10,466 nt of DNA, taken from positions 64,001-74,466 of the IMG/VR virus record IMGVR_UViG_3300005614_000040; one strand, given 5' to 3'. Of the stretch, positions 2,875-10,466 are shown one piece after another. A model generated the notes under the pieces. It had not been told where the DNA came from. It worked only from the letters and a program-made list of their open reading frames with translations, and made no database searches. The DNA is from a virus. Every line of letters starts with the position of its first letter. Positions within the stretch are counted from its first letter, which is position 1. The translations under genes and the position numbers were made by a program.

Positions 2875-4857
2875 CTAACCAACCATCGTACCCAGAATCG
2901 GGTCTAATCCATTTGCCGGAGGAGTGTATCCGTCGCTTTCGTTATTTTTCGCGTCGTCCAAACTCACCACAGGCTCGAAGCTCGGTTGACCCCAAGGATC
3001 AGTAGCTTCTTCCATATACATATTGTAGGCAGCCCGCATCCGGAAGGCTTGCTTCTGCTCGGGCGTCCACGTCCAGCTTGCGATACCTGATTCCTGGATT
3101 TGCTTGAGCACGCGAGGCGCGTAACGTGGTTGCTGCGAAATCACGTCGGGAATGTCGTTGTGACGGCGAAGATTGACCTGACAGCGAAGGAATTCTTCGT
3201 AAAGGGTTTTCAGGAATGGCAGGTAGTTGACGAACTTCAGCAAGTTGCCGACCAGTAACGGCTGGAGGGCCGCCATGCGAGCTTTCTTCGCTCCGTCTTC
3301 CCGAGTTACCGGAATCCAATCGATGCGGCTACAGACTGCAATCACCAGCGGGTCGTTGGTCTTCTGCGCCTCGGCGATGATGGTGGGTTCGATGAACTTC
3401 GATGCCCCGGCGTCTTCGACACCAATTACAAATGGATGGTGCTTGACAGCCATATCAACGATTGCCTTAGCAAGCGCGATAGGGTTTGGAAAGCGGTCGC
3501 GAACGAGATCGTTGACATAGGCGCATCCGTTGGGTCCCCAGATTACCGAGCACCCAGTCGTAAAGTCGCGGTACTTTTTACCGCTGAAAGCAAAATCCCA
3601 GGTATGAGATACCAAACCTTGGAAGGGAATTTCGACGTGCGGCACGGTCGCGCGCAGCAACATCGGAAGATCGAATACCGCTTCCGCTTCCGGAATCGGA
3701 TTCTGGTTCATCTGGCCTTCGAAACTTCCTTCTTCATCTCCACGCTGACCGAATCTATCTCGGTTGTACTCAGAGAGCAGGTAGTCGTAAGAAAGCACTT
3801 TCGGCATCAGGAGGACGCAGCCATCGGCCCCAGCCTCCTGGTAGAACAAATTCGGATTGATGCTTTTGGCCAGGAGTTCGGATCGTACTTCCTGGCGTAC
3901 GGTGATCGCGCGGCCAATGAGAATCAAGGAATTTGATGCCTTGCTCTCGATCATCTCCCAGCCAGGGCCGGAGGTTGTGGTGCCCACCGTCGAATCGATT
4001 TCCAACCCGTACATATCCGAGTCGTGATAGCGCGTACCAATTTTGGTACAATAGCCGAACGGCCGGAGCATCTTCTTATTGATCTTGAAGTTCTTGTTGA
4101 CCTTCAAGCACTGTTCTTCGTTTTCCGAGTTGCGGTTAGAAACCGTGTCGTCGCAGTGCAGAATTTCGTAGTGGTATCCAGAAAGCGTCGAGGTGATCGA
4201 CGAGGCCATGATGGTCGGCTCTCTGCGCTTGATACCTTTAGCCAGCCACACGGGGCACTGGTATTCGAAGGCGTTGGTCAGGTCCTTCTCTAACAGACAA
4301 AACTGCGGGAAGAACAAATTCATCAGCGAAGGTTCCTGAAGCTTCATCAGGAAGTGACCTTTGAGTTCGTCGAGGAAGCTCACCGCGAGGTTGTCAGCGG
4401 CGGTCAAAATCAGGATACGAATTTCGGGGAAGTTCAGAATCCACTGAACCAGGTCGGCCAATCCCGTGGTGGATTTGAAGGAACCACGCGGATACAACAG
4501 CAGGCGGTTCTTAATTTCGCTTTGCTGCGAGAGTGGTTTACTGTCATCCTTCTTGACGAAGAAGTCGAAGAAAGGCCCGTGGTTCTCTTTGCGCAGAAGG
4601 TTGGCGGAGATCGGCTGCCCTGCGGTTTCCGGGTTAGTCTCGTGGACCATGTACCCGGCCAACCATTCCAGGTCTTGCTTGGAGCGCCGGATGACCTCCT
4701 GCGCCCAATGCTGATCGTGCAGCACGCCCTGGTCGAATAGGGTTTTCAGTCCTACCCGATTCGAGTCCAGGTACTCGTAGAGATCGTCATGGCCGACCGA
4801 AGTCCAATCTACGACGCCATCGACTGCATACTTTTCTACGAGGTCTGCAAGGTTCAC
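2875..4857 (-). CDS. terL: Terminase large subunit (660 aa).
   Basis: N-terminal ATPase motifs are present. A Walker A-like LLLYPRGSFKST resembles the deviant RQxGK[ST] of terminases. A Walker B-like ILHCDD is also present. The C-terminal half carries acidic residues typical of the RNaseH-like nuclease domain (VIGVEDAG, WDFAFSGKK). The start is GTG at 4855-4857, overlapping the stop of the upstream micro-ORF as GTGA. Confidence 0.8.
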   Translation of the reverse strand: MNLADLVEKYAVDGVVDWTSVGHDDLYEYLDSNRVGLKTLFDQGVLHDQHWAQEVIRRSKQDLEWLAGYMVHETNPETAGQPISANLLRKENHGPFFDFFVKKDDSKPLSQQSEIKNRLLLYPRGSFKSTTGLADLVQWILNFPEIRILILTAADNLAVSFLDELKGHFLMKLQEPSLMNLFFPQFCLLEKDLTNAFEYQCPVWLAKGIKRREPTIMASSITSTLSGYHYEILHCDDTVSNRNSENEEQCLKVNKNFKINKKMLRPFGYCTKIGTRYHDSDMYGLEIDSTVGTTTSGPGWEMIESKASNSLILIGRAITVRQEVRSELLAKSINPNLFYQEAGADGCVLLMPKVLSYDYLLSEYNRDRFGQRGDEEGSFEGQMNQNPIPEAEAVFDLPMLLRATVPHVEIPFQGLVSHTWDFAFSGKKYRDFTTGCSVIWGPNGCAYVNDLVRDRFPNPIALAKAIVDMAVKHHPFVIGVEDAGASKFIEPTIIAEAQKTNDPLVIAVCSRIDWIPVTREDGAKKARMAALQPLLVGNLLKFVNYLPFLKTLYEEFLRCQVNLRRHNDIPDVISQQPRYAPRVLKQIQESGIASWTWTPEQKQAFRMRAAYNMYMEEATDPWGQPSFEPVVSLDDAKNNESDGYTPPANGLDPILGTMVG

Positions 4858-8206: not shown

Positions 8207-8282
8207 TGGACTCGGCGGCGGGAATCCAACCCGCAACTACTCGGTTAGGAACCGAGGACCCATGCTTTTAGGTGACGCCGAG
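8207..8282 (-). tRNA. tRNA-Arg (anticodon CCU, decodes AGG).
   Basis: Hand fold, 76 nt. Acceptor CTCGGCG/CGCCGAG is a perfect 7 bp. D-stem ACCT/GGGT. Anticodon stem CTCGG/CCGAG with loop TTCCTAA. T-stem GCGGG/CCCGC. CCA is encoded. The D-loop has C19 and the T-loop has G56, a compensatory swap of the usual G19:C56 pair. Confidence 0.7.
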
Positions 8283-8283
8283 A

Positions 8284-8359
8284 TGGAGAACCCGCCCGGA
8301 TTCAAACCGGGATATCAACCTTCGGAGGGTTGTGCTCTATTCTTTTGAACTACGGGTTC
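8284..8359 (-). tRNA. tRNA-Arg (anticodon CCG, decodes CGG).
   Basis: Hand fold, 76 nt. Acceptor GAACCCG/CGGGTTC. Anticodon stem CAACC/GGTTG with loop CTCCGAA. T-stem CCCGG/CCGGG with loop TTTGAAT. CCA is encoded. An A19:U56 covariation is present. A 1-nt spacer separates it from the preceding tRNA. Confidence 0.7.
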
Positions 8360-8364
8360 GTAGG

Positions 8365-8439
8365 TGGGGCGCGGACGAGGATTCAAACCTCGGTTCAGGG
8401 CTTAGAAGGACCTGGCTTATTCCATTAGCTGATCCGCGC
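8365..8439 (-). tRNA. tRNA-Arg (anticodon UCU, decodes AGA). Probable.
   Basis: Hand fold, 75 nt. Acceptor GCGCGGA/TCCGCGC is perfect. T-arm CGAGG-TTTGAAT-CCTCG. D-loop has GG. Anticodon loop CTTCTAA. The anticodon stem has one U:C mismatch and the D-stem has 3 bp. Confidence 0.55.
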
Positions 8440-8605
8440 TTATTTCTTCGGAATGAATCCGCCGCGCGACGCGAAGTTAATGCTGAAAGGCCGGGTAACC
8501 TGGGTGGTACCGTTGTGGTACGTTACTTCGAGGGCCTTACCGCGTTCGAGTCTAGGAGTCATTATTTTGAATTGTACCACAGACAGAGAAATCTGTCAAG
8601 GAAAT

Positions 8606-8681
8606 TGGTGGGTCCGGAGGGAATCGAACCCTCATCACGTCGCTTAAAAGGCGGGTCTCTAGCCAGTTGAGTTACGAACCC
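8606..8681 (-). tRNA. tRNA-Lys (anticodon UUU) with an atypical, weak anticodon stem.
   Basis: Hand fold, 76 nt. Acceptor GGGTTCG/CGGACCC has one G:U. T-arm GAGGG-TTCGATT-CCCTC. D-loop has GG. Anticodon loop CTTTTAA with U33 and A37. The two outer base pairs of the anticodon stem are C:C and C:A mismatches. Confidence 0.55.
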
Positions 8682-8682
8682 T

Positions 8683-8759
8683 TGGTGCGCCGGGCTGGAT
8701 TTGAACCAGCATCATTCTCCTTAAGAGGGAGATATAATCAGCCGTTATACGACCGACGC
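8683..8759 (-). tRNA. tRNA-Lys (anticodon CUU).
   Basis: Hand fold, 77 nt. Acceptor GCGTCGG/CCGGCGC has one G:U. Anticodon stem TCTCC/GGAGA with loop CTCTTAA. T-arm GCTGG-TTCAAAT-CCAGC. CCA is encoded. Only 1 nt separates it from the preceding tRNA-Lys(UUU). Confidence 0.65.
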
Positions 8760-8761
8760 AA

Positions 8762-8855
8762 TGGTAGAGGAGGAGGGAATCGAACCCTTACTGGCATCGG
8801 TCATCTACCGACTACAGAGGCTATAAGGCTCCGCCGCGCGCCCGCGCTCTCCTCT
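8762..8855 (-). ncRNA. tRNA-like element (about 94 nt with CCA) with canonical 3' half but an aberrant 5' half and anticodon region. Possibly a degenerate long-variable-arm tRNA or a tRNA 3'-fragment.
   Basis: Textbook T-arm AAGGG-TTCGATT-CCCTC, acceptor 3' strand CTCCTCT, discriminator A and CCA. A perfectly complementary AGAGGAG lies 94 nt away, but both strands are low complexity. The intervening sequence is extremely GC-rich (CGCGGGCGCGCGGCGG). No anticodon loop with U33 carrying a Ser/Leu/Tyr anticodon could be drawn. The 5' 50 nt lie inside the 3' end of the GT2 coding sequence. Confidence 0.35.
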
Positions 8856-9479
8856 AAAAAATTCTTTCGGCAGACTATTCCTGTCCACCACAGGCCACCC
8901 TGTAGGTTTCTGGTTGGCGGAGTGGAGCACGCAAACCATATTATCACCTGCGGGTTTGGAAGTAAACCAAGGAAACGCCCGGTTCACAAAAATCAGGTCT
9001 TCGCCGTAGGAAACTTTTTCGTCGAACAGATGGCCGAGTGCCCACTGTCGGCGGTAAATCAGCGTTGCGCCCCACAAGCAACTACCCGAGTACCGCGACG
9101 CCTCGCCTGTGTTTTCGTTCCAAAAGTAACAGGAACCGTACCCACCCAGCTTCAATTCTTCCGCGCCCATCATTGCCACTTGATCGGCAAGGCGGTACGG
9201 AGAAGACCAATCGTCGGCATCAAAATGGCAGATAAACTCACCGCGCGCAACCCGAATACCTGCGTTTCGTTTTTCGGCAAGGTTCGCGGCTGGCTTGAAA
9301 ATGTAGGTGACACCTGGTACATCTTTGACCAGGTCGGCGATAGGTTCATCGCCGTCATCTACAACAATGAGTTCCTTGTTCGGCCAAGTCTGGGATAGGT
9401 AACACTCGATGGCGCGGACGACGCGACCTCGCATGTTGTGGTGACAAAGCAAAACCGACACCATCTCAGTTGTGGACAT
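8805..9479 (-). CDS. Glycosyltransferase family 2 (GT-A fold), 224 aa.
   Basis: The N-terminal beta1-alpha1 signature is VSVLLCHHNMRGRVVRAIECYLSQTWPNKELIVVDDGDEP, of the V-S-V-x-x-x-x-x-N ... E-I-I-V-V-D-D-G type. A downstream DXD-type motif FDADDW is present. The ATG at 9477-9479 overlaps the stop of the upstream GT by 14 nt. Confidence 0.75.
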   Translation of the reverse strand: MSTTEMVSVLLCHHNMRGRVVRAIECYLSQTWPNKELIVVDDGDEPIADLVKDVPGVTYIFKPAANLAEKRNAGIRVARGEFICHFDADDWSSPYRLADQVAMMGAEELKLGGYGSCYFWNENTGEASRYSGSCLWGATLIYRRQWALGHLFDEKVSYGEDLIFVNRAFPWFTSKPAGDNMVCVLHSANQKPTGWPVVDRNSLPKEFFRGERGRAAEPYSLCSR

Positions 9480-10077
9480 ACATCAAATCCCTGGCCACAC
9501 CCCACTTCAATTTCTTCGTCAAATCCTGCAGCGTTGTTCTGTCTACGCCGGAGCACGCGGGCACCAGGGGTTTGTTCAGCCAACCTTTGAACTTGGCGCG
9601 TTTCACTAAGAACGATGGCTTATATCCCGGAAAGCCGGGTTTGCCAAGCTGCAGGACTCGGTAGCCGTCAATTCCGCAGGTCTCAGGCCCGGTCAAGGTT
9701 GACTCACACAGCACCAGATCGAGATTATTCCTGACCGCCTCGGTCAACATTCTTTGTGTCCACTGCGGCGGATAGTAGCAGTCTTCGCAGGGAAAGCAAA
9801 CCCATTTACCTTTGGCCTGGTTAAGCCCGACTTCTGATGACCAGTAGCAGTCTGATACTTTGATCTTTCCGGCCGTTCGCAGATAGCGAAACCGCTTGTC
9901 CTTCAACTTCTCGACGATCCGCTTCTGCTGGTGCGCGACGGTTTTGTCTTCCGTGTTGTCGGTTACGATCACTTCGTAGTCTTCGTGGGTTTGACCCTTG
10001 ATTGACCACAAACACGCCGCCAGGAAATCTGGTCGATTGTAGAGCGAAACAACGTAGCTGACTTCGACCTGGGGCAT
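9466..10077 (-). CDS. Glycosyltransferase family 2-like (about 203 aa from MPQVEV).
   Basis: GT2 N-terminal signature EVSYVVSLYNRPDFLAACLWSIKGQTHEDYEVIVTDNTED. The ATG is at 10075-10077. The longer track ORF (to 10278) would run through the tRNA-Pro gene, so the internal start is preferred. Confidence 0.65.
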   Translation of the reverse strand: MPQVEVSYVVSLYNRPDFLAACLWSIKGQTHEDYEVIVTDNTEDKTVAHQQKRIVEKLKDKRFRYLRTAGKIKVSDCYWSSEVGLNQAKGKWVCFPCEDCYYPPQWTQRMLTEAVRNNLDLVLCESTLTGPETCGIDGYRVLQLGKPGFPGYKPSFLVKRAKFKGWLNKPLVPACSGVDRTTLQDLTKKLKWGVARDLMYVHN

Positions 10078-10234
10078 TTTTAATGGCACCGGACTGGCGA
10101 ATTGGACGCCACTCGGAGGTTTTGGAGACCTCTGTGATCCCAGATCGTCCGGCAAAAATGGAGCACCCGAGTGGAGTCTAACCACCGTCTCGATGTTCGT
10201 AGCATCGTGTCCTATACGTTGAACGACAGGCGCA

Positions 10235-10310
10235 TGGTCGGAAAGGTGAGATTCGAACTCACGTCGTCTCGCTCCCAAAGCGAGTGCCTAAGCCTCTAGG
10301 CTACTTTCCG
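10235..10310 (-). tRNA. tRNA-Pro (anticodon UGG).
   Basis: Fully canonical hand fold, 76 nt. Acceptor CGGAAAG/CTTTCCG. D-stem GCCT/AGGC with GG in the loop. Anticodon stem CTCGC/GCGAG with loop TTTGGGA. T-arm GTGAG-TTCGAAT-CTCAC. Discriminator A and CCA are encoded. Confidence 0.85.
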
Positions 10311-10315
10311 AAAAA

Positions 10316-10402
10316 TGGTCTAGGTAGCTGGATTTGAACCAGCGTAACCCCGAAGGGACACGTTCCCGAAACGTGTGGCAGACCGGACTTGCCGATACCT
10401 AG
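10316..10402 (-). tRNA. Type-II (long variable arm) tRNA, 87 nt, whose anticodon reads CGG by hand folding. This is a proline-codon anticodon on a Ser/Leu-type body.
   Basis: Acceptor CTAGGTA/TACCTAG is perfect. D-stem is 3 bp (GGC/GCC) with an 11-nt loop containing GG. Anticodon stem CACGT/ACGTG with loop TTCGGGA, so positions 34-36 are CGG. The variable arm is CCC-TTCG-GGG. T-arm GCTGG-TTCAAAT-CCAGC. Discriminator A and CCA. Confidence 0.55.
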
Positions 10403-10403
10403 A

Positions 10404-10466
10404 TGGTGCCAACTCAGGGAGTTCAACCCTGCTCTACTGTGCTTCAAACAGTCGTAGCGAGCGCGT
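10404..10466 (-). tRNA. tRNA-Phe (anticodon GAA), truncated by the window edge. The 3' 63 nt are visible.
   Basis: T-arm CAGGG-TTGAACT-CCCTG. Acceptor 3' strand AGTTGGC plus A and CCA. Anticodon stem ACTGT/ACAGT with loop TTGAAGC. It begins 1 nt after the preceding tRNA. Confidence 0.5.

Follow-up and report, generated by a model that had tools for sequence, protein, structure and literature searches.

Eight tRNA genes were identified by ARAGORN in the window, that is, in the whole analysed stretch of 10,466 nt from a viral IMG/VR record; all of them are on the minus strand and have an encoded CCA (Table 1). The array is situated upstream of the genes encoding the large terminase subunit and an SU10-type portal protein, which are on the same strand, and it is cut at position 10466 by the end of the source contig, a metagenome contig of 74,477 bp (ENA ERZ27252105). 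Two genes of family-2 glycosyltransferases are embedded in the array. [quoted passage not shown] This tandem had been noticed in the first-pass annotation, which did not give the strand, and it was confirmed by ARAGORN.

Table 1. Genes and other features at the tRNA array locus, in the numbering of the window
Feature	Position	Strand	Description	Basis
SU10-type portal gene	380-2488	minus
Large terminase subunit gene	2875-4857	minus
tRNA-Arg(CCU)	8207-8282	minus	tandem, downstream of the Lys genes	ARAGORN
tRNA-Arg(CCG)	8284-8359	minus	tandem, downstream of the Lys genes	ARAGORN
tRNA-Arg(UCU)	8365-8439	minus	tandem, downstream of the Lys genes	ARAGORN
46-aa ORF	8440-8580	minus	downstream of the promoter
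Sigma-70-like promoter	8571-8599	minus	TTGACA, 17-nt spacer, TACAAT
tRNA-Lys(UUU)	8606-8681	minus	76 nt, CCA encoded, A73	ARAGORN, Rfam RF00005, family covariation
Anticodon arm of tRNA-Lys(UUU), nt 27-43	8639-8655	minus	CCCGC-CUUUUAA-GCGAC	sequence and fold
tRNA-Lys(CUU)	8683-8759	minus	77 nt, regular 5-bp stem UCUCC/GGAGA, CCA encoded, A73	ARAGORN, Rfam
Allo-tRNA-like gene	8762-8855	minus	94 nt, UAU anticodon, 2 nt upstream of tRNA-Lys(CUU)	ARAGORN, relaxed settings only
Family-2 glycosyltransferase gene	8805-9479	minus	embedded in the tRNA array
Family-2 glycosyltransferase gene	about 9466-10155	minus	embedded in the tRNA array
tRNA-Arg(ACG)	10159-10233	minus	upstream part of the array	ARAGORN
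tRNA-Pro(UGG)	10235-10310	minus	upstream part of the array	ARAGORN
tRNA-Pro(CGG)	10316-10402	minus	87 nt, extra arm; upstream part of the array	ARAGORN

The sigma-70-like promoter (11 of 12 matches and an upstream TG) was observed directly 3' of the tRNA-Lys(UUU) gene and is followed by the 46-aa ORF and then by the three tandem tRNA-Arg genes. Since this strong promoter lies between the blocks, the Lys and Arg genes may form separate transcription units. In the upstream part of the array, tRNA-Pro(CGG) has a hairpin in the variable arm and a 6-bp anticodon stem. In the arrays of related phages, too, a variable arm is repeatedly present on tRNAs of isotypes usually devoid of it (Lys, Asn, Cys, Glu, Thr).

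The gene immediately upstream of tRNA-Lys(CUU) is missed by ARAGORN at default settings and falls below the Rfam tRNA threshold. It has a long variable arm with the loop UAGAUGA, a D stem of GC pairs only closed by a tetraloop, A73, an encoded CCA, and roughly the 8/4 arrangement of the acceptor and T stems. In at least nine other phage arrays there are calls of "tRNA-Ile(tat)" of 89-99 nt with an invariant AGAU in the loop of the variable arm. By its sequence features, the UAU gene fits the description of allo-tRNAs (PMC5389517). The allo-tRNA(UAU) species that were tested, six of them with potential Ser identity, had no translation activity in E. coli (PMC5389517). A conserved phage-borne gene of this kind inside tRNA arrays may merit separate study.

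No near match to the window was found by megablast among 50,697 phage records. The closest large terminase subunit of a cultured phage is that of the acidobacterial Tunturiibacter phage Tunturi_3 (27% identity), which has no tRNA-Lys. Only two ARAGORN tRNA calls were obtained in Tunturi_3 (PP885686.1; L141/L142), and its annotation lists two RNA ligases, an RNA 2'-phosphotransferase, a kinase and a phosphoesterase. One possibility is that this phage repairs tRNAs by means of these enzymes instead of carrying a tRNA array. No tRNA-Lys was found in the examined DNA of the IMG/VR relatives collected by terminase (L001-L007) or in that of the relatives collected by glycosyltransferase (L103, L104).

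In the genes of the window (2,791 codons counted) lysine is encoded by AAA in 41% and by AAG in 59% of cases. As both codons are used, both Lys tRNAs are useful. In the first-pass annotation tRNA-Lys(CUU) had been described as a back-up for its neighbour; it is no more than the other Lys isoacceptor in an array of many tRNAs. The codons AGA, AGG and ATA account for 2%, 3% and 5% of their own codon families, yet each of them has a dedicated tRNA gene. The array resembles a near-complete set that is independent of the host, and not a codon-matched supplement. Such a near-complete array fits translational autonomy and counter-defence alike.

The two Lys genes score 44.0 bits (UUU; E 1.7e-7) and 58.0 bits (CUU; E 2.4e-11) with the Rfam model RF00005, that is, above the gathering score of 29, and thus neither is a chance match. 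The score of tRNA-Lys(UUU) is the second-lowest among the eight tRNAs of the window. The D arm of tRNA-Lys(CUU), GUCGUAUAA..AUUAU, is common to the Lys(CUU) genes of two other arrays, L008 and L010, which carry the variant Lys(UUU) described below as well.

In the ARAGORN fold of tRNA-Lys(UUU) the two upper positions of the anticodon stem, C27·C43 (8655/8639) and C28·A42 (8654/8640), are open, in agreement with the two non-Watson-Crick pairs reported earlier at the top of this stem. Instead of five base pairs the stem has three, all of them G:C: C29-G41, G30-C40 and C31-G39. The alternative alignment given by Infernal places a deletion 5' and an insertion 3' in the stem, equivalent to the pair C27-G43' with a bulge of 2 nt. 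With ARAGORN and Infernal alike, the stem is irregular at its top. A further mismatch in the ARAGORN fold is A10·A25, and one nucleotide is lacking where the D stem passes into the anticodon stem (GAGA-CCCGC versus GAGCA-CCCGC in relatives). The loop is the canonical CUUUUAA, with UUU in a 7-nt loop between U33 and A37, and the T arm contains G53, U54, U55, C56, A58 and C61, so that every nucleotide of the tertiary contacts is present. The predicted stability of the anticodon arm is -2.3 kcal/mol, compared with -1.1 kcal/mol for the 5-bp arm of E. coli and -2.1 kcal/mol for that of T5. Thus the arm is not predicted to be weak, its calculated stability being like that of normal arms, and since three G:C pairs are sufficient for this, the open top may simply be tolerated.

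A family of 19 distinct sequences with the same backbone was collected from the tRNA arrays of uncultured phages, using patterns in which the anticodon stem and then also nucleotides 39-48 were left free. The patterns did fix some positions of the D arm, the loop and, in one of them, nucleotides 44-47, so that the invariance of the corresponding columns is by construction. A 25-mer from the 3' strand of the D stem to nucleotide 47 is exactly conserved in three IMG/VR and four metagenome contigs, always within tRNA arrays of 13-29 genes. The lysine identity set recognised by the E. coli lysyl-tRNA synthetase (LysRS) consists of the UUU or CUU anticodon in a 7-nt loop, U33, A37 and the discriminator A73. 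The loop CUUUUAA, which is among the parts fixed by the patterns, and A73 were found in all 19 members.

The acceptor stem of the family has changes on both sides in seven of seven pairs, with 99.2% of cells paired, and the T stem in five of five pairs, with 100% of cells paired. The pairs 29-41, 30-40 and 31-39 are formed in 19 of 19 members, and two of the three covary. The covariation score is 0.614, as compared with 0.154 for shuffled sequences (none of 500 shuffles reaches the observed value) and at most 0.11 for slid partners. This pattern of substitutions indicates that the fold is under purifying selection.

The two upper positions behave differently from the lower stem and from each other. 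The pair 27·43 is open in 18 members: C27 is invariant, and nucleotide 43 is A (10 sequences), C (6), U (2) or G (1). At 28·42, ten members are open (C·A in five, A·G in four, U·C in one) and nine are paired (C-G in six, U-A in two, G·U in one). The latter fraction is not far from the expectation of 6 in 16 for two random bases; this looks like relaxed constraint and not like selection for an open pair, and the mismatch at 28·42 may be neutral. The complete arm CCCGC/GCGAC is shared without change by five sequences, which diverge from one another at as many as 16 of the remaining 63 positions; for the window tRNA, the number of differences from the other four is 11-16. The same arm was observed on a different backbone in L061. 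Since the arm is kept across diverged sequences and the fold covaries, the open top is a stable property of this lineage of probably translating tRNAs.

A pair C27-G44 with nucleotide 43 bulged was considered and rejected as a general model. Firstly, the family has members with A44 and C44; the invariance of G44 in the first 13 sequences had been imposed by the search pattern, and a pattern with nucleotide 44 free yielded these members. Secondly, this fold is less stable (-18.8 versus -21.5 kcal/mol for the window tRNA).

In four related arrays (L008, L063, L099, L125), two distinct genes of tRNA-Lys(UUU) are adjacent or close to each other, and at least one Lys(CUU) is present as well. The second Lys(UUU), beside the open-topped one, has an anticodon stem of 5 bp in L063 and of 4 bp in L008 and L099. 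Lys-like tRNAs with the loops AUUUAA(G/U) and no ARAGORN assignment were observed in L009 (10184-10618, minus strand) and L011 (725-798, minus strand); if these loops are of 7 nt, the anticodon would be UUA, that of an ochre suppressor.

The 17-mer spanning nucleotides 27-43 has 20 exact matches in the genomes of 185,579 bacterial and archaeal species, searched with one genome each. None of these matches is in a tRNA and none precedes a T arm. As part of a tRNA, the arm was seen in arrays of viral or metagenomic origin only. The first-pass annotation had allowed that the stem, when folded correctly, might turn out to be identical to that of the host tRNA-Lys; for the representative genomes of the 185,579 species this was not the case. 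The gene, its fold, its conservation and its restriction to phages are shown by the present analysis. As far as can be judged from sequence comparison, the window tRNA-Lys(UUU) represents a previously undescribed, phage-restricted lineage in which the anticodon stem is constitutively open at its top.

In the arrays examined, anticodon stems are often imperfect, whatever the isotype. Such stems occur in approximately 24% of the 716 unique tRNAs (four pairs in 21.6%, three pairs in 2.5%). In a tRNAscan-based survey of bacterial tRNAs, 5.6% had anticodon stems of four pairs and 0.2% had neither four nor five (PMC13092985). Compared with the bacterial rate, loose stems are a general habit of these phages. 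Imperfect stems are enriched in Lys(CUU) (14 of 32, p = 0.0035) and Thr (14 of 28, p = 0.0007). The copies of Lys(UUU) that were not selected by a pattern are not enriched (3 of 13 versus 126 of 619, p = 0.73), and a candidate enrichment of the Lys(UUU) isotype was rejected, as it is not significant without the pattern-selected copies. The state in which both top pairs are open is rare outside the family (2 of 619).

These observations may be combined into the following scheme. The tRNA-Lys(UUU) gene would produce a working lysine tRNA reading AAA and probably AAG. Its lineage, found only in uncultured phages with large tRNA arrays, retains a normal cloverleaf in which three G:C pairs close the loop and the top of the stem is permanently open. 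Along with tRNA-Lys(CUU) and the other tRNAs of the array, it would allow for lysine decoding without dependence on the tRNA-Lys pool of the host. The arm appears to differ in shape and sequence from that of cellular tRNA-Lys in the very region where Toprim-type nucleases bind and cut (AriB between 40 and 41; OLD after 28 and after 40), and thus the phage tRNA should be a poor nuclease substrate, surviving when the host tRNA-Lys is destroyed. We infer that it is charged by LysRS, expressed, and resistant to such nucleases.

Several observations were counted in favour of this scheme: the systematic open top and the phage restriction, taken together with the AriB and OLD precedents; the tRNAs for the rarely used codons AGA, AGG and ATA, which make the tRNA set unmatched to codon use; and the presence of two different Lys(UUU) genes in several related arrays. 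Other observations were counted against it. The positions at which escape from AriB was mapped are 39 and 41, and not 27, 28, 42 and 43, the OLD precedent is a tRNA-Thr, and imperfect stems are frequent across all isotypes without enrichment in Lys(UUU). The near-random pairing at 28·42 and the normal predicted stability of the arm were counted against it as well. In addition, the canonical loop means that nothing points to escape from loop cutters such as PrrC, and the relevance of PrrC-type nucleases suggested in the first-pass annotation found no support. Its more general suggestion of an anti-defence tRNA was partly supported: a conserved phage-borne gene, a non-cellular arm, the existence of stem-cutting nucleases and the OLD precedent speak for it, and the canonical loop, the T5 escape positions and the lack of enrichment in Lys(UUU) speak against it. 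By analogy with the known systems, an anti-defence role of the open-topped tRNA-Lys(UUU) is plausible but unproven, with a probability that we would set slightly short of even.

The main alternative is tolerated structural drift in a tRNA of ordinary supply. Here the near-complete phage set would boost or replace the host tRNAs, and the open top would be neutral, made harmless by the three G:C pairs. A tRNA for AAA is indeed needed, given its share of the lysine codons in the window genes, and the near-random pairing at 28·42, the normal predicted stability of the arm, and the array-wide frequency of imperfect stems with no enrichment in unselected Lys(UUU) are all consistent with drift. However, nucleotide 43 avoids G in 18 of 19 sequences while varying among A, C and U, the arm CCCGC/GCGAC is unchanged across 17-25% divergence elsewhere in the tRNA, and tRNAs of other isotypes seldom have both top pairs open. 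The tRNAs for hardly used codons likewise argue against simple codon matching. Whereas we regard an anti-defence role as having nearly even prospects, drift in an ordinary supply tRNA is a real possibility of lower rank.

A stronger claim can be formulated, which we consider unlikely as a whole: the open-topped, G:C-clamped and one-nucleotide-short arm would be a general solution evolved by phages, by which tRNA-Lys(UUU) would escape the notice of the AriB- and OLD-type Toprim anticodon-stem nucleases of soil and freshwater bacteria or would act on them as a decoy that is not cleaved, and the cluster of the allo-tRNA(UAU)-like, Lys(CUU) and Lys(UUU) genes would be a module of counter-defence and not of codon supply.

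Tuning of decoding or modification is rather improbable. With its short, flexible top above a G:C-clamped lower stem, the tRNA could behave differently on the ribosome; this could widen wobble, or could stabilise the weak UUU loop when the host modifications lag, and C31-G39 of the family does replace A31-U39 of E. coli tRNA-Lys. An unpinned top pair is known to alter decoding in tRNA-Trp(CCA) (PMC13092985), although the published effect concerns CNN anticodons. The phage also has Lys(CUU), so a wider wobble is not needed.

Still less probable is a decoy or inhibitor function, in which the tRNA would bind an anticodon-arm nuclease without being cut and protect the host tRNA-Lys, instead of replacing it or besides doing so. 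Such a possibility was raised for overexpressed T5 tRNAs (PMC12409363), but the conservation of the acceptor stem and T arm, together with A73 and CCA, suggests that the tRNA serves in translation.

A decaying pseudogene, with the three mismatches (including A10·A25) as damage in a disused gene and the second-lowest Rfam score as its sign, is barely credible and was already disfavoured, since every acceptor- and T-stem pair has compensatory changes with 99-100% of cells paired in 19 sequences, five diverged sequences have the same arm, and all nucleotides of tertiary contacts are present. The first-pass annotation had allowed that the tRNA might score as a pseudogene; it scores 44.0 bits against 29, and its family shows covariation.

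Phage tRNA arrays are now being reinterpreted as counter-measures to tRNA-cutting immunity, and the resistant phage tRNAs mapped so far are few and all come from coliphages. The lineage described here is a natural test series: the stem is fully paired in one member, open at 27·43 in others, and open at both 27·43 and 28·42, via three different mismatches, in others again. From this series it could be learnt whether phage tRNAs generally evade stem-cutting Toprim nucleases by shortening the stem. Should this not be an escape route, the family shows how few pairs the anticodon stem of a translating tRNA needs.

[quoted passage not shown] The substitution U39A abolishes cleavage and A41C reduces it; since the T5 tRNA with the restored E. 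coli site does not regain cleavage, other parts of the tRNA matter as well (PMC11464382, PMC12409363). The window tRNA-Lys(UUU) is unlike that of E. coli at both positions conferring resistance, having G39-C40-G41 in place of U39-C40-A41, where the E. coli reference may not be that of the host. [quoted passage not shown] However, the T5 tRNA has four pairs (CUGGU/ACCAU) and, from the D stem to the anticodon stem, a junction of full length, whereas the window tRNA has three pairs, all G:C, and one nucleotide fewer at the junction. The two are not close in sequence, and the resistance of the T5 tRNA was demonstrated experimentally, whereas that of the window tRNA is a prediction.

Partly similar but less extreme stems were found in tRNAs of cultured phages. 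C27·U43 with 28-42 paired is common to the tRNA-Lys of T5 and of an Epseptimavirus. The lower stem CGC/GCG and the open 27·43 of the window tRNA recur in Lys(UUU) of the Erwinia phage Hena1 (CCCGC/GCGGA) and of the Stenotrophomonas/Xanthomonas phage DLP_6 (GCCGC/GCGGA), and in Lys(CUU) of DLP_6 and of BUDD, likewise from Stenotrophomonas/Xanthomonas (UUCGC/GCGAC). In Hena1, DLP_6 and BUDD, however, 28-42 is paired, the junction GAGC-A is full, and the backbone is not that of the window tRNA. The bacterial tRNAs with 4-bp anticodon stems also have the terminal pair unpinned (PMC13092985). The window tRNA has two open pairs and 3 bp left, and stems of 2, 3, 6 and 7 bp together make up 0.2% of bacterial tRNAs; moreover, the function proposed for the 4-bp stems is expanded decoding and not evasion of defence (PMC13092985).

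The first-pass annotation had assumed that escape variants tend to lie at the top of the stem. This does not hold for T5, with positions 39 and 41, nor for the mycobacteriophage and coliphage tRNA escape variants, which are changes in the anticodon loop (van den Berg et al., PMC10264068); the latter have in common with the window tRNA the general idea of changing a nuclease site, but the loop of the window tRNA is canonical. There is one direct precedent for it, P2-OLD. This nuclease cuts after nucleotide 28 and after nucleotide 40, at the paired motif C28-N-G30/C40-N-G42, and the phage tRNA-Thr resists it only when the motif is altered and the pair 27-43 is lost (PMC12445682). The pair 27-43 is lost both in the OLD-resistant coliphage tRNA-Thr(UGU) and in the window tRNA-Lys(UUU). 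On the 3' strand the window tRNA has C40-G41-A42, in which the OLD motif is lost, whereas its sister tRNAs have C40-G41-G42; on the 5' strand C28-C29-G30 retains the motif, unlike the resistant tRNA-Thr(UGU). The isotypes also differ, as the preferred target of OLD is tRNA-Thr(UGU) and the window tRNA has the anticodon UUU; tRNA-Lys is among the tRNAs cleaved by OLD in vitro, although not as the preferred target (PMC12445682). Judged by analogy, the OLD-resistant tRNA-Thr is a genuine structural parallel to the open-topped tRNA-Lys(UUU), and the best published support for the idea that the top of the anticodon stem may be a site of escape.
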